Assembly (NCBI GenBank): GCA_002788675.1
Contig: PFRS01000007.1
Location: forward strand, 64,270 to 128,269
Direction: 5' to 3'
Source of the DNA: Candidatus Pacebacteria bacterium CG_4_9_14_0_2_um_filter_40_15
GTDB lineage: Bacteria; Patescibacteriota; Microgenomatia; UBA1400; PJMF01
DNA: 64,000 nt
The notes under the pieces are model-generated. The model was not told the origin of the DNA. It was given only the letters and a program-made list of their open reading frames with translations, and made no database searches. This document shows, piece by piece, positions 46,452-55,425 of this stretch. Each line of letters opens with the position of its first letter. The stretch's first letter is position 1. Position numbers and translations under genes: made by a program.

Positions 46452-46774
46452 ATTGTTATCAGACAGAATACCACTTTTTACCACTATCGAGAATAAGTAT
46501 GCATCACCCCAAGTGTTTTGTAAACACTAAGATGACCCGAAAATGTAGGCCGAATAAGTATTTAACAACTTTGATTTTCAAACGGGATGTTTTTAGATTG
46601 TAAAAAAGATACTAGTACTATTTGAAAAAGATATTGGATTAAAGTAAAATGTGGATAACTAACAACATTAAAACACATCCAGATATAAGAGAGTACAACT
46701 GAGATGAATTTTGTTAGCTATGGGTTGTGAAATGACGAATTAATTGCGGGGTGAGTGGTTGGATATAAAAGTAG

Positions 46775-47659
46775 CTATTCCCAAATAAGCTCAAAATAAC
46801 TTGTACCTTCTGAATTAGGTTCAGAAAGCATCGTCCCAGAATTTGAGTTCTTTATTTCAGTTAGCGAATGCTCATATTTTTTCATCAGTAACAAATGAGT
46901 GATCAGTGCCGATGGACTATCAAGATACTCATTTGAAAATGAGCGCAGCAGTTCATAGTCATCATTTTTAATTGCTTCAATTGTGAGTGTGTCACGTTTA
47001 TCTGATTCCTCGCTGCTTAAGTAGTGAGAAAAATCAACGGAGGTGACAATAACAGTCTCCGGGGTACTAACCGATTCAAGTAATGCAGAAATTTCAGATA
47101 TAGACTGTAGAGTAAGTGTATTGCTAACAGCCAACGGTATTATTTTTGTGTCAGGAAGAAAGTACTTAAAGTAGTGTACGAGTCCTGCTACCGCATGTTC
47201 GTTTGAAAGCGCGTCGTTTTCAATTGAAACTAAATCACTTTCAGTTAGTTTGTTGATAATATCTTTATCAATATATGTAGTGCCAAAGGGTGTTTCCCAA
47301 TTTTTATTTGAGGTGATTACAGCTGTTGAACCTTGTTCATAGTGATTAGGTGTGAGTAAGAAGATACTCTCGGGATTTTGAGCTTGTATTCGGGACAGTA
47401 CATCAATGATCATCTCATTGGCAACGAGATGATGTGGAATAACTGCTCCCGTTATTTTTGGTGAATCAGCAGTAGGCTGATATTTTTTTAACCCAACACT
47501 AAAGAGCGCTTCATCCCAGGATTTTATTGGTTGGAGATCTTGATGTTCAACTTCATTTTCATTTGCAGTTTGCTTTTGTTGGACTGAGGTCAAAAAAACA
47601 GCGATTGATATACCCACTAAAAAAACTACTAGCAAAAACCAGAGATATTTACTCATCAC
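46775..47659 (-). CDS. MEMO1-family protein (AmmeMemoRadiSam system protein B-like) with an N-terminal TM anchor
   Basis: Motifs GAVIPHHL and VTSVDFSHYLS match the MEMO1 H and DxSHxG metal-site regions. The N-terminal TM is WFLLVVFLVGISIAVFL. It overlaps the A2M gene by 11 nt. Confidence 0.55.
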   Translation of the reverse strand: MMSKYLWFLLVVFLVGISIAVFLTSVQQKQTANENEVEHQDLQPIKSWDEALFSVGLKKYQPTADSPKITGAVIPHHLVANEMIIDVLSRIQAQNPESIFLLTPNHYEQGSTAVITSNKNWETPFGTTYIDKDIINKLTESDLVSIENDALSNEHAVAGLVHYFKYFLPDTKIIPLAVSNTLTLQSISEISALLESVSTPETVIVTSVDFSHYLSSEESDKRDTLTIEAIKNDDYELLRSFSNEYLDSPSALITHLLLMKKYEHSLTEIKNSNSGTMLSEPNSEGTSYFELIWE

Positions 47660-50600
47660 TTATTTGGTCAGAATCAGACTCAGACTCAGGTAGTGTTTGT
47701 TCTTTTATTGGAAGTAATCTGCCTACTATGTCTTTAATCTTCTGTCTCTTTACCACTACCACCATAGCGCCGGAAAACAGTGCAATTACGATGAATACAG
47801 CTACAACAGGGTGCAATCGTAACCACGTAGCTAGAGCTTTAAGATACTTATTCTGGGCCACATATTGTGGGCCAGTGCCAGATACTCTCTCACCTCCAAT
47901 ATATTTGGGATCACGGGTAACTGAGATTTGGTCACTGCCAGTTCGTGCATTAATGGCAGGAACATACATAAGTGCTGTTGTGGCAGGCGGTACTGAAAAC
48001 TCTCCGTTGTTAATGACTCTAGCTTGGTAGCTGAAAGTCATGGAGGATGCGTTTCTGTTTCCAGCATATCTTTCTTCTAGAGAAAAGATTATGCCATCTT
48101 TAGTGAATTCTCGTGTGATACCACCTGAGTAGAATCCAAAGTAATGTTGGCGATAGCCATCAGTCTTTTGGTTCTTAAGTGCAGAGTTCATAGGTATTAA
48201 GCCTGCAGGTAAGTGGTCCTCAACTACCAGATATTGCTGAGTTGAAGTTAATCCTGTCACAGTTAGTCGTATATCTGCAACATCACCAACTTTAAAAGCA
48301 TAGCCTGGGTGAGTTACATTCAGGTACTCTCGAGTAATTGACAAGTCATTACTTACTGCAGTCACAGTGCGATCAGTTACAAAATCCTCTACGAGCACAT
48401 CAGAGTAGAGTTGCCCTTCTCCATTTTGAGTAACAGTGATTGTGGAGCCTTCTGGCTTGATCTGAGAACTCTCAAGTGTAATTGGAGCTATGTTCAATTT
48501 TGAGGAAGTCACCTGTCCAGAAGCAATTTCTTTTCCATCTAGCGTAACTGTGTAGGAGTACGTTGGATTACTCTCTTGAAGCGTGCTAGATAGATCTGTG
48601 ATAAGTCTGATAACTTGGACAGTTCCATACGTATTTCCCCAATAAGCGTTAGTACGAGATTCAACCATGTTTCTAGCTGAAGAGAGAACTACATTTTGAT
48701 AGCCTCCTACTGTTTGGAGCGCTCGTAGTGCTAAGCCTGTAGCAGCTTCGGACGAATGGAAGCCCCACTGTTTTGAAGTGTTCCAGCTATAAATATCTCC
48801 TTGTTTTTCTGCAAGAGAGAGTAACAAGTTAAGACCATTTGTTTCTGGGTTTGAATAGCCATTTTTACTGTTAGCAAGTACTGCTAAGGCAATGTAATCT
48901 GCATCAAGTGAGTTGAGACGAGATACATCAATGAGTTCGGAAGCTTGTCGCTCATTCATAAGCGCGAGTGCATACTGTTTTGTAATAATTTCATGAATCT
49001 CAGTTGAGTCATTATTTCTAAAGAATGTTCTTGCATTAACGAGCATAATGTCATCAACAGCTATTCCATTCGACTGTGCAAGTAGAAGATATTCAAGTAC
49101 ATATGCTGAAATATACGCATCTGAATTACCACTCCACCATCCCCAGCCACCGTCATCATTTTGAAGTTTAGCGAGTCGGGTAAGTCCAGCTTCTGTCATA
49201 TCTGCAATGTCTGTATTTTTGAGCACATCACCAAACAATTCAGGATGACTGGTTGCCAAAATGATTGGTACAAATCGGCTGGTGGTTTGTTCTACACACC
49301 CGTATGGGTAGTCTAAGAGATACTCCATTGCAGCAGGAAGTGTGCCCACTATGCTTGGTGAGAGATTCAAAGAGATACTCGATTTACCTGGATTTGCATT
49401 TTCTGAGAGTGCCACAGTGTAGGTACTGGTACCAATGCCAGTTTGAGACTCTTTCTGCATAAAGCCATAGGCTTGAATTGGCAGCGGCTGCACAATGGCA
49501 TCACTGAGTTCTGCTGTTTGAGTATTATCAGCAATAAAGGTGACTTTGTTATCAAGATTTTCATTTTCCACAGTCACAGGCCAGAACACTTGAATAAAGT
49601 CTCCTGGAGCTATAGTAACTGTTTGTAATGGGTTACTGTCAAATCGTACGTTTTCACTTTTAATACTGACATCTAATGTCTGCTCAGTATCAGTAAAGTT
49701 ATGAACCAAGGCTGACAATTCGATACTGTCCCCTTCTCTAAGGATATCTGGGGTAATAGGACGAATAACAATGTCTTTACCCACAACAATATCAGCAGTT
49801 GACTGGCCAACAATGGTTGAAGTTGTGGCACCAATGCCAGTAATAACCCAAGTGGTTAAGTTATCTGGAAGAGTGAACGTGACTTGTGCTTCACCATTAC
49901 TGTCGGTGTGTACCACTGGGTTCCAATATGCAGTGTCAGCAAAGGTTGTACGGGCATCTCCTTTTTGATTGTGCACATAGATATTGTTTGCGAAATAAGT
50001 CTGATAGGTATCAATTGTAAGATTATAGACGTCGAATGATCCTGCTTGCCACTCGATACTTTCAATTGCAACTTCTTGTCCGTCTGCATCGAGTAATGTG
50101 TCTCCTACAGAGAGCGTATCAGCGGTTTTCCAGCTGTTATGTACCCAAAGTCGGTGTTCAGGTGTTACTTTAAGTGTTCCGTTAAGAATCAGATACCCAG
50201 CTACTTTTGTTTTGGTTGTGTCGATAACTTTTGCCGTGACAAGGCTAGAATCTGTTGGAAATTTTTTAGTTAAGACGGTATCGCCAACTTGAATCATTTC
50301 GATAGCTTTGGTTGAACCATTGGCCATGAGTACCGGTGTATCACCGGTAAAGCATCCACCGCCCATTTCAGCTGCGTTACTGCGAATACCTTCAAGTGAG
50401 TTGCCGTCACTAGTTGATAAATATCGTTCTTTCCAAAAATTGGTAAAGATATCACCAATGGTATCTGAAGCGAGTTCGTAGAGTGATTTATCCACTGCCC
50501 AGACAGCAAGTTCGCCAGAGATTGGATTTTGTGCATCATCTGTAGCTTTAATGTTAACGGTTACCGTGTCTCCAGGACCATATTTGGGTTTGTCTGGAGT

Positions 50601-52847
50601 TATAGATATATTCATCTTTTTACTTGAAGTTGAGACTTTTATTTGCTTTTGAGAGTTATGCAAATGAGACTCTGCAAAGCTATCAGTACTCAGATAGACG
50701 TTTGGCATGTCTGATTCTTCAATTGGCAACGTGAATTGTGCCGAGTTGCCTGTGATACTCAAGATCTGATACCTTCGGACTCTATCTCTGAGCACACTCA
50801 CAAATACATCTCGATCTGCGACAGCTGAAAAGATTTTTATGGTAGCATTTTCTCCAGGTGCATAACTCTCTTTATCAAGCTGAATGTCAAAAGATCCATT
50901 TTGTAGATCGCTGTATGGCGTATCATTATCATATACATAGGCATACATAGTTCGGATGACGGTGTTACCTCGTGTATCTTTTGTTCTCACATCAAACAGA
51001 TAACTTCCTGGTCGATGTGCTGGAAGTGTAATTGTTGCTTCTCCAGAATTATTAGTAGTTACGTTTATTTTTTCGAGTACCTCATGTTCTTTTCGGTAAT
51101 TTGATCGTCCATTTTTTTCTTCTCTGATGTATTGCGTTATGCTAGGGGTAATTTCTATAGGAATATTCCTCACAGAAACCACTGGATCATTAGGAACAAG
51201 AATGATGGGGAGATTAATGGTGCCTCCATTTGTCACTCCAGTTGAGTAATTCTTTTGGTAAATACCGAATTCAGCCTCGTGAACCAGCACATTTTTTCTG
51301 GCTTGCACAGGATTTCCTGTTTCATCGACAAAACTGACTTCTACTGAGTAGACTTTGTCTGAAGAAATATTTTCACTAATATCGTTGAGAGTCTTGCTTT
51401 GTATTTCTGCTAAACCTCTCTCATTAAGAGTTACAGAGCCAGAGTCAATCTTTTTTCCATAGGAATAACCATATCGGTAATCGTCGCTGAGTAGAGGTAA
51501 ATCTTCTGAATAGTATCCATATTGGTAGTAGTTTGAGGCGTAAATTGTGTAGGTCACCTTTTGGTTTGCAAGAGGTTGTCCGCTAAAGTATGTTCCAGTT
51601 ACGTCAAGAGAAACGGTGTCACCTGCAATGAACTCAGTTTCATTTGCATCAACATTTAAACTATATTCGGGTTTGCGATAGTTCTCGACGCTAAAACTTG
51701 CATATGAAGAGTAATCTTCTCCCATTTCAACAGTAACACGGTAGTAACCAGTTCCACTTGAAACAGGTACTTCAAAGCTACCGTCAAGAGTTCCTGTTGA
51801 AGACAAAGTGAAGTTCTTTTCATACACAACGGTATCATTCCAACCTTTGTATAAAACCACATGTGCAATGCCTGAAGCTGGCGAATACACAGCGTCGTTA
51901 TCATTACGGACAATAGATTTAAAGTTAACAGTATCACCAGGCTGATATATTGGTCTGTCAGTAAAGACGAAGAATTTTTTATCGATTGATTGAGCAGGGA
52001 AGCGGTTGTCCCAATAGCCGGTATCAACTGCAGTTAGATTAATTGGCACAAGACTGATTTCACCATCTTTTTCTACTAGTGCTACATCAGCATTTTCAGT
52101 GTAATTAAGTTCGACAGTGCCTTGTTCATTGGTGAGCTGGGAGTCAAGCTGGGTAAGTTTGTTTGTTAAATCATAGGTGGTAATTTGTACATTTGACTCA
52201 CTTCTTAAATCTGTAAAACTTTGGGTCCAAAAAACGAATTTGTTATCACCTTCCTTGACCAGTGCTCCTAGAGAGGATCTTACCAACATTGACGTAGCGA
52301 CAAGATCTCCATCATCACCCTTAACGACAACGTACCAGACGCCACTTTCTTCAAGTGGAAGAGCAATTTCAGTTCCGTTATTCGATAGATTCTCAGAAAA
52401 CTCGGTTACTTTTTCAAAAGAGGATGTGTCTATTGAAAGAGCAAGTTTTTTTCTTTCATCATCATGTAATAGGTAGCCGAGCATATCAGCTTTATTCACT
52501 TTAAATAGCGATACTGTGACACTTTTTGGTAGATTTCCATACCCATTGATTTCTAATTTTGGAGCTTGTGTAGAACTCAGGGAAAGGACACCCCCATTAC
52601 TATACCCGTAGTAACTGTTGGGAATGGTGAGCCAGAGGCTTCCATTGGATTCACCAAGAACCTTTTCTAGAGATTCATCTGCTGTTTGTTGAGATGTCAC
52701 GCTTGGTGTTGTCTGAGAAACGTTAAAAAGTGTGCGTATAAATGTTGCCTGAGAATAGGTTACTGCAAATGCAGTAATTAAAAAAGCAGCTATAAAAACA
52801 GAAGCTGTTGGGTTGCCAAATATTTTTTTTGCCAGATTTTTAAACAT
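47649..52847 (-). CDS. Alpha-2-macroglobulin family protein (1732 aa) with a CVEQ thioester, N- and C-terminal hydrophobic anchors, and an embedded Hint domain
   Basis: Thioester motif YGCVEQT (Cys codon at 49298-49296, residue 1184). A2M motif RTTFADTAYWNP...TLPDNLTTW. alpha/alpha toroid GGWGWW. The N-terminal signal/TM is VFIAAFLITAFAV and the C-terminal TM is VVAVFIVIALFSGAMVVVV. Confidence 0.8.
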   Translation of the reverse strand: MFKNLAKKIFGNPTASVFIAAFLITAFAVTYSQATFIRTLFNVSQTTPSVTSQQTADESLEKVLGESNGSLWLTIPNSYYGYSNGGVLSLSSTQAPKLEINGYGNLPKSVTVSLFKVNKADMLGYLLHDDERKKLALSIDTSSFEKVTEFSENLSNNGTEIALPLEESGVWYVVVKGDDGDLVATSMLVRSSLGALVKEGDNKFVFWTQSFTDLRSESNVQITTYDLTNKLTQLDSQLTNEQGTVELNYTENADVALVEKDGEISLVPINLTAVDTGYWDNRFPAQSIDKKFFVFTDRPIYQPGDTVNFKSIVRNDNDAVYSPASGIAHVVLYKGWNDTVVYEKNFTLSSTGTLDGSFEVPVSSGTGYYRVTVEMGEDYSSYASFSVENYRKPEYSLNVDANETEFIAGDTVSLDVTGTYFSGQPLANQKVTYTIYASNYYQYGYYSEDLPLLSDDYRYGYSYGKKIDSGSVTLNERGLAEIQSKTLNDISENISSDKVYSVEVSFVDETGNPVQARKNVLVHEAEFGIYQKNYSTGVTNGGTINLPIILVPNDPVVSVRNIPIEITPSITQYIREEKNGRSNYRKEHEVLEKINVTTNNSGEATITLPAHRPGSYLFDVRTKDTRGNTVIRTMYAYVYDNDTPYSDLQNGSFDIQLDKESYAPGENATIKIFSAVADRDVFVSVLRDRVRRYQILSITGNSAQFTLPIEESDMPNVYLSTDSFAESHLHNSQKQIKVSTSSKKMNISITPDKPKYGPGDTVTVNIKATDDAQNPISGELAVWAVDKSLYELASDTIGDIFTNFWKERYLSTSDGNSLEGIRSNAAEMGGGCFTGDTPVLMANGSTKAIEMIQVGDTVLTKKFPTDSSLVTAKVIDTTKTKVAGYLILNGTLKVTPEHRLWVHNSWKTADTLSVGDTLLDADGQEVAIESIEWQAGSFDVYNLTIDTYQTYFANNIYVHNQKGDARTTFADTAYWNPVVHTDSNGEAQVTFTLPDNLTTWVITGIGATTSTIVGQSTADIVVGKDIVIRPITPDILREGDSIELSALVHNFTDTEQTLDVSIKSENVRFDSNPLQTVTIAPGDFIQVFWPVTVENENLDNKVTFIADNTQTAELSDAIVQPLPIQAYGFMQKESQTGIGTSTYTVALSENANPGKSSISLNLSPSIVGTLPAAMEYLLDYPYGCVEQTTSRFVPIILATSHPELFGDVLKNTDIADMTEAGLTRLAKLQNDDGGWGWWSGNSDAYISAYVLEYLLLAQSNGIAVDDIMLVNARTFFRNNDSTEIHEIITKQYALALMNERQASELIDVSRLNSLDADYIALAVLANSKNGYSNPETNGLNLLLSLAEKQGDIYSWNTSKQWGFHSSEAATGLALRALQTVGGYQNVVLSSARNMVESRTNAYWGNTYGTVQVIRLITDLSSTLQESNPTYSYTVTLDGKEIASGQVTSSKLNIAPITLESSQIKPEGSTITVTQNGEGQLYSDVLVEDFVTDRTVTAVSNDLSITREYLNVTHPGYAFKVGDVADIRLTVTGLTSTQQYLVVEDHLPAGLIPMNSALKNQKTDGYRQHYFGFYSGGITREFTKDGIIFSLEERYAGNRNASSMTFSYQARVINNGEFSVPPATTALMYVPAINARTGSDQISVTRDPKYIGGERVSGTGPQYVAQNKYLKALATWLRLHPVVAVFIVIALFSGAMVVVVKRQKIKDIVGRLLPIKEQTLPESESDSDQISDE
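49968..50354 (-). other. Hint / bacterial-intein-like (BIL-type) domain inserted in the A2M protein (residues about 832-960)
   Basis: Block A is CFTGDTPVLMANG...VGDTVL. Block B is VTPEHRLWVH (TxxH). Blocks F/G are FDVYNLTIDTYQTYFANNIYVHN. The +1 residue is Gln, not Cys/Ser/Thr. Confidence 0.75.
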
Positions 52848-52891
52848 ATATTCTATAATATCATTTTTTCTATTGTGTGGTCTAATATGAA

Positions 52892-52917
52892 AAAGCTCCC
52901 CTATGCAGGAGAGCTTT
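52892..52917 (-). terminator. Weak intrinsic terminator on the minus strand between the 263-aa gene and the A2M gene
   Basis: Stem AAAGCTC...GAGCTTT with an internal CCC/GG(A)G region. On the minus strand the 3' arm runs into UUUUU. Confidence 0.35.
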
Positions 52918-52940
52918 ATAATAAAAAATGTATTTTGTAG

Positions 52941-53732
52941 TTATTCAGTAACAACTACATATGCTTCCATAAGCTCTACAGTAGCTGTGGCTGCTTTTCC
53001 ATCGGTGGTAGTTTCAAACTGTTGCCATTTTGAACCATCCCAGCCCATGATGGTGAGCGTGCCTTCTTGTTTAGCTCTTATGGTAAGTTCAGCAGAGCCA
53101 GAAAGGAGACGATTACTGGTAAGTGAGTATATTTCTGAGGCCAGTGTGCCTTCAAGTTCGCCGGGATATCCAGGTGAGTTATAAATAACTAACAGGTTTG
53201 CTGAAGCTAAATCTTTTGATTCAATCTGAAAGAACGCATCTTTTGAAGTAAAGGCTGTTTCGCCATCATTTTCAATGTACTTCCAGTCGGACTTGAGGTC
53301 AAATTCCTCACTTCCTTCAAAGAATGCTCGAAGCTCTCCACCTTTAATATCTTCATGATAGGTACACGATCCACCAGCACTGCAACTTCCCAAAAGAATT
53401 TTTTCCGTGGCAGGCACTGAAGTTAGCTCAATCTGACCAAATGCACCTTGAACGAGTGTCCCTGTTTGGTATTCAAGTTCATAATCGACAGTCGCAGCAG
53501 GTTTTTTGAGTGTATCTACAACGATACTAATATTGCGAGCGTCAACTGGAACAATCTTAACATATGGTCGCTCATCCACATCAATAACATTGTAGTTTCT
53601 AACTGTTTTTTTCTTTTTTGTTGTTTCTTCAACAACTTCGGCAGGTTTTCGAGTCGTTGAGTATACTCCAACACCTACGCCAAGTAAGACTAAGACGGCA
53701 ACAATTCCGGCAATAACTTTTTGATTCTTCAT
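52941..53732 (-). CDS. Hypothetical membrane-anchored extracytoplasmic protein (263 aa)
   Basis: N-terminal TM (VIAGIVAVLVLLGVGVGVY), Lys-rich linker. No recognisable family. Confidence 0.4.
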   Translation of the reverse strand: MKNQKVIAGIVAVLVLLGVGVGVYSTTRKPAEVVEETTKKKKTVRNYNVIDVDERPYVKIVPVDARNISIVVDTLKKPAATVDYELEYQTGTLVQGAFGQIELTSVPATEKILLGSCSAGGSCTYHEDIKGGELRAFFEGSEEFDLKSDWKYIENDGETAFTSKDAFFQIESKDLASANLLVIYNSPGYPGELEGTLASEIYSLTSNRLLSGSAELTIRAKQEGTLTIMGWDGSKWQQFETTTDGKAATATVELMEAYVVVTE

Positions 53733-55189: not shown

Positions 55190-55425
55190 CCCTTTCTGGT
55201 TAGCCTTGGGCTATAAAAAAACCCCACTGTATATAAGCATACATGTAGGGACCCGTGTTGGGCGGTTCCACCCTAATTCCACACCAAATGTGTGACACTT
55301 ACGTTTAGTTCTTTTGTTACTTCCAGATGTATAAAACTACCTGGTCGCTTGCCAAGGGCGAAACTCTTGAACATAGATTTATTATAGCACAATCATATTA
55401 AACCTGCGCACGTTTTTGATTCCAA
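55190..55425 (-). promoter_or_regulatory. T-box riboswitch leader (Gly, candidate GGC specifier) with terminator and extended -10 promoter upstream of glyS
   Basis: The minus strand carries the canonical T-box sequence AAUUAGGGUGGAACCGCC (plus coordinates 55261-55278), followed by hairpin CCCUAC...GUGGGG and U7 (55214-55250). Upstream is GGCA in a loop-like context (GGC at 55353-55351) and a TGcTATAAT extended -10. Confidence 0.6.

Follow-up and report, generated by a model that had tools for sequence, protein, structure and literature searches.

A macroglobulin gene and a gene for a Memo-like protein form a conserved, overlapping pair in single-membrane bacteria

Introduction

Bacterial alpha-2-macroglobulins (A2Ms) have been described as two periplasmic systems of Gram-negatives, type I, which is linked to pbpC, and type II, which is encoded by the mag operon (PMC5764988). 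In the latter, the A2M is stabilized and localized by the single-pass membrane protein MagB, and in vivo processing of MagD gives rise to two fragments (PMC5764988). A2M-domain membrane proteins are also present in bacteria of the candidate phyla radiation (CPR), where a defence against host proteases has been suggested as their role (PMC8080830). Here we analyze an A2M gene of Candidatus Pacebacteria bacterium CG_4_9_14_0_2_um_filter_40_15 together with the gene that overlaps its 3′ end and codes for a Memo-like protein. Both lie on the minus strand of a 64,000-nucleotide stretch of contig PFRS01000007.1, referred to below as the window. The literature on macroglobulins in combination with Memo, AmmeMemoRadiSam, Patescibacteria, Saccharibacteria or CapA yielded no A2M-Memo pairing, and the two genes apparently represent a third kind of macroglobulin system in bacteria that has so far gone undescribed.

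Results

The A2M and Memo-like genes overlap

An initial annotation of the window had grouped three consecutive minus-strand genes into a candidate envelope module abutting the mraZ/dcw (division and cell wall) cluster: one for a 263-aa membrane protein (p263), one for an A2M with a Hint insertion, and one for a protein resembling MEMO1. The three open reading frames (ORFs) are present as described, and the 11-nt overlap proposed for the last two holds if translation of the Memo-like gene starts at GTG. The A2M stop codon (TAA) occupies 47649-47651, and the ATG start, which is used in the NCBI-deposited 293-aa form of the Memo-like protein (P0001), shortens the overlap to 8 nt. The features of the pair, in window positions, are:

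47649-52847, minus strand: A2M gene of the thioester type, 1,732 aa, first gene of the pair (ORF and Pfam)
46775-47659, minus strand: Memo-like gene, second of the pair (294 aa from GTG; 293 aa from ATG at 47656)
52761-52805, minus strand: N-terminal hydrophobic segment of the A2M, aa 15-29 (hydropathy; a possible signal-peptidase site, between SQA and T, follows)
49968-50354, minus strand: Hint (PT-HINT, or bacterial intein-like) domain, PF07591, 129 aa, from C832 to H-N960, next residue Gln
49287-49298, minus strand: thioester motif CVEQ of the TED domain, aa 1184-1187 (motif in the translation)
47751-47807, minus strand: predicted C-terminal transmembrane helix of the A2M, aa 1681-1699 (KRQK and an acidic tail come after it)
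47591-47647, minus strand: predicted N-terminal transmembrane helix of the Memo-like protein, aa 4-22 (ATG numbering), predicted N-in, C-out

The pair recurs across Patescibacteria and Bacillota

An alignment of 26 Memo-like homologues was scanned against one genome per GTDB species; 470 relatives were recovered, and the best 80 loci of the 470 were analyzed. By tblastn and ORF analysis, an A2M of 1,560-1,800 aa was located directly upstream of the Memo-like gene, on the same strand, in 79 of the 79 loci with upstream sequence. Locus L049 was left out of this count because its sequence starts inside the Memo-like gene. In five loci the A2M was missed by tblastn, and there truncated A2M ORFs clustered with the remaining A2Ms. 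At 51 of the 74 A2M/Memo junctions measured the genes overlap, in 35 cases by 4 nt, in 8 by 1 nt, and in the remaining 8 by different lengths, and at a further 15 a gap of 0-30 nt was found. We conclude that the pairing, the orientation, and the start/stop overlap of the two genes are conserved.

When the ORFs within 10 kb of the 80 Memo loci were clustered, the largest cluster besides A2M and Memo comprised no more than 16 loci, and no third conserved neighbour of the pair was revealed by this analysis. In the sampled loci the flanking genes vary by lineage and are unrelated housekeeping genes, such as those for pyruvate formate-lyase (PFL), IspD, HrcA, and a tRNA-editing protein.

A reverse test started from the A2M. 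An A2M alignment was run against 241 million metagenome records with no selection for Memo, and 80 loci were fetched. Among A2Ms at least 36% identical to that of the window and with downstream sequence, a Memo-like gene follows directly in 13 of 13 (L082-L092, L096, and L097). In another close relative, L100, a CapA-like (PGA_cap) gene occupies the Memo slot, 8 nt downstream of the A2M gene, which brings the count to 13 of the 14 closest A2Ms. The adjacency noted in the initial annotation is thus conserved from both directions. A2Ms that are 31% identical or less were without Memo in the reverse-test loci, and upstream of three of these distant A2Ms (L093, L094, and L099) is PBP1c, the classical type I arrangement. 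Since Memo stands only beside the closest A2Ms, and PBP1c or DUF1175 beside the distant ones, the partner follows the A2M clade. A PBP1c-like sequence was not found in the window, and the earlier description of Memo as standing in for PBP1c is a fair one. DUF1175 was encountered only next to unrelated soil A2Ms: the two that were sampled, with a CTEQ motif (about 1,640 aa; L108, 7993-17599, and L113, 7993-18147) have a DUF1175/NlpC-P60-like gene upstream, and L108 additionally has a Transpeptidase-SpoIID fusion protein downstream of the A2M; the surroundings of both are unlike the pbpC pair and unlike the classical mag operon.

Judged by record labels, the pair is carried by many lineages of Patescibacteria, by many Bacillota (Clostridia, Tepidanaerobacter, Desulfitobacterium, Peptococcaceae, Sedimentibacter, Petroclostridium, and Symbiobacteriaceae), and by one Dehalococcoidia bin. 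Hence it recurs as a unit in single-membrane bacteria. Some bins with the pair are titled Gammaproteobacteria, Pseudomonadales, Nevskiaceae, Bdellovibrionales or Mycobacterium leprae (L001, L005, L006, L012, L024, L026, L033, L039, L051, and L052). All of them except L051 have a CPR-type pair, with an A2M 38-44% identical to that of the window, and the taxonomic labels of these ten bins look wrong.

The A2M is of the thioester type and is hydrophobic at both ends

The 1,732-aa protein matches the Pfam domains MG2, bMG3, bMG6, A2M_BRD, PT-HINT/Hint (aa 823-960), A2M, TED (TED_complement), and bMG10; MG2, bMG6, A2M_BRD, A2M, TED_complement, and bMG10 score above the family cut-offs. The closest solved structures in a sequence search of the PDB are those of E. 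coli YfhM/ECAM and Salmonella A2M, with E values of about 1e-37 (8e-38 for YfhM). The predicted protein has thus kept the full type-I domain set as well as the CVEQ thioester motif.

The hydrophobic segments described in the initial annotation were all recovered, two in the A2M (aa 15-29 and 1681-1699) and one N-terminal helix each in the Memo-like protein and p263. The N-terminal segment of the A2M may be either a cleavable signal peptide or a signal anchor, and such a segment is present in 63 of 68 full-length homologues. The first 40 residues hold no Cys, so that, as proposed, the A2M is without a lipobox. The C-terminal helix is found in all 24 thioester-type homologues, and in 21 of them the flank that follows the helix is the more positive one, which is consistent with a cytoplasmic C-terminal tail.

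The 68 full-length Memo-linked A2Ms fall into two subtypes. In 24, all from CPR bacteria, C-x-E-Q is combined with a C-terminal transmembrane helix; the other 44, from Bacillota and a few CPR bacteria, have R-x-[DE]-Q in nearly all cases and are without the helix. The C-terminal anchor put forward in the initial annotation is therefore, in combination with the thioester motif, a property of the CPR subtype only. The pair occurs with thioester and thioester-less A2Ms alike and, since Memo is common to both, its role does not seem to be tied to thioester chemistry.

A Hint domain is conserved in the bait region

The Hint insertion in the A2M, also part of the initial annotation, was recovered by PF07591 with 51 bits (cut-off, 27.7). 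Placed between the A2M_BRD and A2M domains, at the C-terminal edge of the bait region, it splits a conserved motif into AExGG before and xKGxxRxxFxDT after the insert. Of 75 Memo-linked A2Ms, 30 have a Hint domain at this position. Across these 30 homologues, Cys1-Phe2, T-x-x-H, VYNL, and the terminal HN are conserved to at least 90%. The mean pairwise identity of the inserts is 48%, at least equal to that of the host A2M, and the domain appears to be vertically conserved rather than sporadic.

We considered a canonical (class 1) intein and rejected it: Cys1, T-x-x-H, and His-Asn are there, but the Cys, Ser or Thr required at position +1 is missing in the 30 homologues. In 29 of the 30 this residue is Q, D, E, G or N; the lone Leu comes from a 110-aa regular-expression match and is probably an artefact. 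Because the +1 residue is never a nucleophile, canonical splicing is excluded. Bacterial intein-like (BIL) and PT-HINT domains act by self-cleavage, for instance in polymorphic toxins, or by non-canonical splicing, and the same would be expected here. The bait-region Hint probably cuts the A2M autocatalytically into two chains, or else exposes it conditionally. After self-cleavage the C-terminal A2M chain would remain tethered to the membrane in the CPR subtype, and such a two-chain A2M could be loosely likened to complement C3 with its beta and alpha chains.

The second protein shows a Memo fold and an invariant putative metal site

The assignment of the second protein to the Memo family in the initial annotation passed both profile and structure comparisons. 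The protein scores 85.4 bits with PF01875 (cut-off, 27) and 103.9 bits with TIGR04336 (cut-off, 26). Its AlphaFold2 (AF2) model has a pLDDT of 92, and the best PDB matches returned by Foldseek are MEMO1 structures (7l5c, 7kq8, and 3bcz; E value, 2e-12; TM-score, 0.68). After human MEMO1, the next fold matches are TK2203, aminophenol dioxygenases, and DOPA dioxygenases, and the protein is accordingly assigned to the LigB-type fold. In a profile search of PDB sequences MEMO1 was the sole match, with PHH, PNH, EHS, and DFSHY aligned to MEMO1 motifs.

In 81 Memo-like sequences, H75, H105, D208, F209, S210, H211, Y212, L213, D246, T285, and S286 are invariant. We take H75, H105, D208, and H211 to be the equivalents of MEMO1 residues H49, H81, D189, and H192. 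We conclude that the partner has a genuine Memo fold with an invariant His/His/Asp/His site. Such strict invariance makes catalysis or metal binding likelier than a pure scaffold function, and the partner is more likely an enzyme or a metal sensor than an inert scaffold. The position of the Cys in the 'ACG' motif of canonical bacterial Memo proteins is taken by D246-S-P in the extracytoplasmic Memo (ecto-Memo) clade. In MEMO1 this Cys is a metal ligand; Asp in its place would favour a harder metal ion, as would suit an extracytoplasmic setting.

In the AF2 model an N-terminal helix extends across aa 3-35, and an N-terminal hydrophobic segment is present in 76 of 81 Memo-like homologues. The N-terminal flank of the helix carries a mean net charge of +2.2, versus 0 after the helix, and it is the more positive flank in 68 of the 76. 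The Memo domain is thus predicted to face outward (N-in/C-out); the charge bias puts it outside, in line with the initial annotation, and not in the cytoplasm. Hence both the A2M and the Memo-like protein have the sequence features of extracytoplasmic, membrane-tethered proteins.

The ecto-Memo clade comprises 1,923 representatives of 50%-identity clusters at E ≤ 1e-30, within which linkage to A2M was checked in the 79 testable loci only. A search of the window and of 160 related loci, made with a single query and hence with limited sensitivity, turned up no AMMECR1-like sequence. A radical-SAM gene is present in some Clostridia loci, where it adjoins a gene for a PFL-like protein and probably encodes the activase of that neighbour. 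Ecto-Memo proteins are currently named 'AmmeMemoRadiSam system protein B' without that system being present, and this annotation should be corrected.

CapA-like proteins occur beside, and fused to, Memo

CapA-like (PGA_cap) genes adjoin the pair in L001, L016, L021, L039, L057, L082, and L083, and a Memo-PGA_cap fusion lies downstream of the A2M in a Saccharibacteria locus (L034, 2170-3993). A PGA_cap gene was not found in the window. These occurrences suggest that a CapA-like ectoprotein is a recurrent, optional third component of the system. The apparent 'second Memo paralogue' beside some CPR pairs was rejected: the genes in question are PGA_cap genes, and single-linkage clustering had bridged the two families through the L034 fusion.

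Memo-PGA_cap fusions of 570-626 aa form about 28 protein clusters in CPR bacteria. We examined the contexts of six of them, all outside Saccharibacteria:

L164, 8001-9746: Memo-PGA_cap fusion
L165, 8001-9842: Memo-PGA_cap fusion
L166, 8001-9731: Memo-PGA_cap fusion
L167, 8001-9773: Memo-PGA_cap fusion
L168, 2150-3862: Memo-PGA_cap fusion
L169, 2301-4160: Memo-PGA_cap fusion

In five of the six, a gene for a protein of more than 550 aa abuts the fusion gene within a few nucleotides. The large proteins beside the fusions measure 711 aa (without a Pfam match), 1012 and 876 aa (both DUF3160, in L166 and L167), 828 aa, 575 aa, and 603 aa. Upstream of the L165 fusion is a gene for a 236-aa protein of unknown nature, 78 nt away.

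p263 belongs with glyS

The remaining features of this part of the window are:

52941-53732, minus strand: gene for the 263-aa protein p263 (ORF; no family match in Pfam or NCBIfam)
52892-52917, minus strand: terminator-like hairpin, 11-bp stem followed by a T run, at the end of the glyS-p263 unit and the 5′ boundary of A2M-Memo
52855-52884, minus strand: promoter-like site just upstream of the A2M start, TAGACC, 18 nt, TG-n-TATTAT (consensus match)
55244-55383, minus strand: T-box-like leader upstream of glyS (RF00230, full model length, 32.1 bits)

We rejected p263 as a member of the module: it has no match in the 80 Memo loci, it follows the glycyl-tRNA synthetase (GlyRS) gene in relatives that lack the pair, and a hairpin separates it from the A2M gene. 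Its family has 331 matches in Patescibacteria, all of 50-77% identity among the 120 matches listed, and is apparently restricted to that group. In two distant genomes (L162 and L163) the gene order is RecO-GlyRS-p263-[variable genes]-MraZ-RsmH-FtsL-PBP, without A2M-Memo; one relative, with a Memo-like protein of 59% identity, retains GlyRS-p263-A2M-Memo-MraZ. No match to mraZ was found in the 80 Memo loci. Thus p263 belongs with glyS, and the adjacency of the pair to mraZ and the dcw cluster is incidental and lineage-specific. Of the envelope module of the initial annotation there remains the coupled A2M-Memo pair, without p263, and its tie to mraZ/dcw is not supported, the slot between p263 and mraZ being filled by other genes in relatives that lack the pair.

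The p263 gene starts 6-43 nt downstream of GlyRS in four of four contexts (window, 52941-53732; L081, 3947-4738; L162, 7001-7813; L163, 7001-7798). The AF2 model of p263 (pLDDT 91) consists of an N-terminal transmembrane helix and two beta-sandwich domains, and the family has the invariant motif GSCSAGGxCxYH; no informative PDB fold match was found for the model. The 290-nt spacer between the Memo stop codon and mraZ (46485-46774) is AT-rich, and no terminator-like hairpin was found in it.

The initial annotation had also placed a terminator between p263 and A2M and a T-box upstream of glyS. There is indeed a hairpin at the former position, as a consensus match only. The RF00230 match spans the full model in a local 331-nt search (E value, 1.2e-5), but its score is below the gathering score of 93, and a search of 44-58 kb with Rfam at the gathering threshold gave zero matches; the leader may be a compact or divergent CPR T-box.

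Taken together, the flagged stretch probably consists of two independent units. One would run from the T-box-like leader to the hairpin terminator and contain glyS and the gene for the 263-aa membrane protein. The other would be a self-contained two-gene operon, A2M followed by Memo-like, lying in the variable slot between p263 and mraZ.

Discussion

A model for the A2M-Memo pair

The reading that we favour, and consider reasonably probable, is that of an A2M-Memo operon of single-membrane bacteria in which Memo serves as a metal-dependent partner beside or on the A2M. At the external surface of the cytoplasmic membrane, underneath the cell wall, the A2M would serve to trap proteases; in the CPR subtype, to which that of the window belongs, the C-terminal helix would hold it there. 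Translational coupling would yield the Memo-like protein in fixed proportion to the A2M, with which it would work as a metal-dependent partner. Memo would thereby take the place held in Gram-negatives by PBP1c (type I A2Ms) or by the Mag proteins (type II).

Several points weigh against this proposal. A physical A2M-Memo complex and any catalytic activity are predictions from gene order and sequence. The topology calls are simple readings of hydropathy and charge bias. The promoter and the terminator rank as consensus matches only, since scans over a 10-kb region gave no more sites than shuffled sequence. Oxidase and dioxygenase chemistry is known for the Memo/LigB-type fold, and the anaerobic life of many hosts argues against chemistry of that kind. 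Finally, the genes beside the Memo-PGA_cap fusions in the six contexts outside Saccharibacteria do not encode A2Ms, and the Memo-like ectoprotein may have a more general role than that of an A2M partner.

Alternative explanations

The last point leads to the main rival, according to which ecto-Memo, frequently accompanied by a CapA-like protein of the phosphoesterase fold, serves generally in the maturation, anchoring or modification of large surface proteins, with A2M as its commonest client. The roughly 28 fusion clusters, the proteins of more than 550 aa that abut five of the six fusions examined, the CapA-like gene in the Memo position of L100, and the fusion after A2M in L034 all speak for such a function. 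However, in all 79 of the testable best loci the unfused ecto-Memo gene adjoins A2M and nothing else, the fused and the unfused forms may belong to distinct clades that differ in role, and we know of no chemistry that ties Memo or CapA folds to protein maturation; we regard this explanation as rather unlikely. Still less probable, in our view, is that the CPR thioester A2M is no protease inhibitor at all and instead attaches covalently to host cells, in the manner of complement or an adhesin, with assistance from Memo. The membrane-anchored, surface-exposed protein with its intact CVEQ would suit this purpose, and CPR bacteria have been inferred to be epibionts, with large surface proteins proposed for host contact (PMC13059738; PMC8080830). 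Yet the same pair is present in Clostridia, which are not known epibionts and whose A2Ms have R-x-[DE]-Q in place of the thioester Cys, and both the set of domains and the bait region match those of A2Ms that trap proteases.

Two further explanations concern the composition of the locus, and we give both very little credence. The three-gene envelope module, with p263, A2M, and Memo tied to the division and cell-wall cluster, draws on the predicted membrane anchoring of all three products and on the one relative in which the order from GlyRS to MraZ is kept. It is at odds with the lack of p263 and mraZ matches in the 80 Memo loci, with the GlyRS-p263 and mraZ cluster of L162 and L163 that does without the pair, and with the terminator-like hairpin between p263 and A2M. 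Moreover, p263 (50-77% identity) is far more conserved than either A2M or Memo, as expected of a gene with a separate evolutionary history. Least likely of all is that the small gene encodes a cytoplasmic AmmeMemoRadiSam system protein B whose adjacency to A2M is fortuitous. The TIGR04336 score (104 bits against a cut-off of 26) and the NCBI name of the deposited protein would agree with this, but 76 of 81 members carry a hydrophobic helix near the N terminus, preceded by a positive flank, the canonical Memo Cys is replaced, and the single-query search found no AMMECR1-like sequence in the window and the 160 related loci. There is also no third conserved neighbour, and the radical-SAM gene seen in some Clostridia loci probably encodes the activase of the PFL-like protein next to it.

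Significance

The A2M-Memo pairing is a third arrangement beside types I and II and is widespread in single-membrane bacteria, CPR included. To our knowledge, what Memo-family proteins do biochemically has not been settled for any organism, and a strict, coupled link to one very large, well-understood protein gives experiments a tractable way to approach it. The bait-region Hint, in turn, raises the possibility of a self-cleaving A2M. A bolder extension of the favoured model, which we offer tentatively and hold to be possible at best, is that A2M and ecto-Memo, with an optional CapA-like protein, form a third, unrecognised macroglobulin class of single-membrane bacteria; that Memo is a metal-dependent ectoenzyme which the A2M needs for maturation, regulation or reset; and that the CPR Hint produces a self-processing two-chain A2M. 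If so, the Memo family would gain its first genetically defined partner and a substrate context.

Comparison with known systems

The type I systems (E. coli YfhM/ECAM-PbpC and Salmonella Sa-A2M) share with the pair the MG domains, the bait-region domain, a TED with CxEQ, and bMG10. In both, the A2M is outward-facing and tethered to the cytoplasmic membrane, and its gene adjoins that of a single membrane-anchored extracytoplasmic partner. The partner, however, has a Memo fold here and is the peptidoglycan synthase PBP1c there, and the anchor is a C-terminal transmembrane helix plus an N-terminal signal or anchor segment instead of a lipobox. The hosts described here are single-membrane bacteria, their A2M may carry a Hint in the bait region, and the thioester has been lost from a sister subtype that likewise pairs with Memo. 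In the type II systems (Pseudomonas MagD of magABCDEF; E. coli YfaS) the A2M likewise depends on operon-encoded partners, and MagB and the processed MagD set a precedent for a stabilizing partner and for a two-chain A2M. The pair differs from them in having two genes rather than six, a thioester motif, and no Mag-type partners such as DUF1175.

The Memo-like partner resembles MEMO1 and the Memo family (PF01875) in profile and fold, the latter being the LigB-type fold of class III extradiol dioxygenases, and the residues of PHH, PNH, and DFSHY that align with the metal site are invariant; unlike them, it is predicted to be extracytoplasmic and membrane-anchored, has Asp-Ser-Pro in place of the Cys, and occurs in many anaerobic hosts. 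It is set apart from the AmmeMemoRadiSam system by its genetic partner, which is A2M and not AMMECR1 plus a radical-SAM enzyme. The Hint domain corresponds to BIL and pretoxin-HINT domains in its size (a mini-Hint of about 129 aa), in Cys1, T-x-x-H, and the terminal His-Asn, and in lacking a +1 nucleophile, whereas its A2M host, its insertion at the bait region, and its apparently vertical conservation are unlike theirs. Lastly, CapA/PgsA proteins (PGA_cap, PF09587) of poly-gamma-glutamate systems, of which the window has none, provide the counterpart of the membrane-anchored ectoprotein that stands beside Memo, is fused to it, or replaces it in relatives of the pair.

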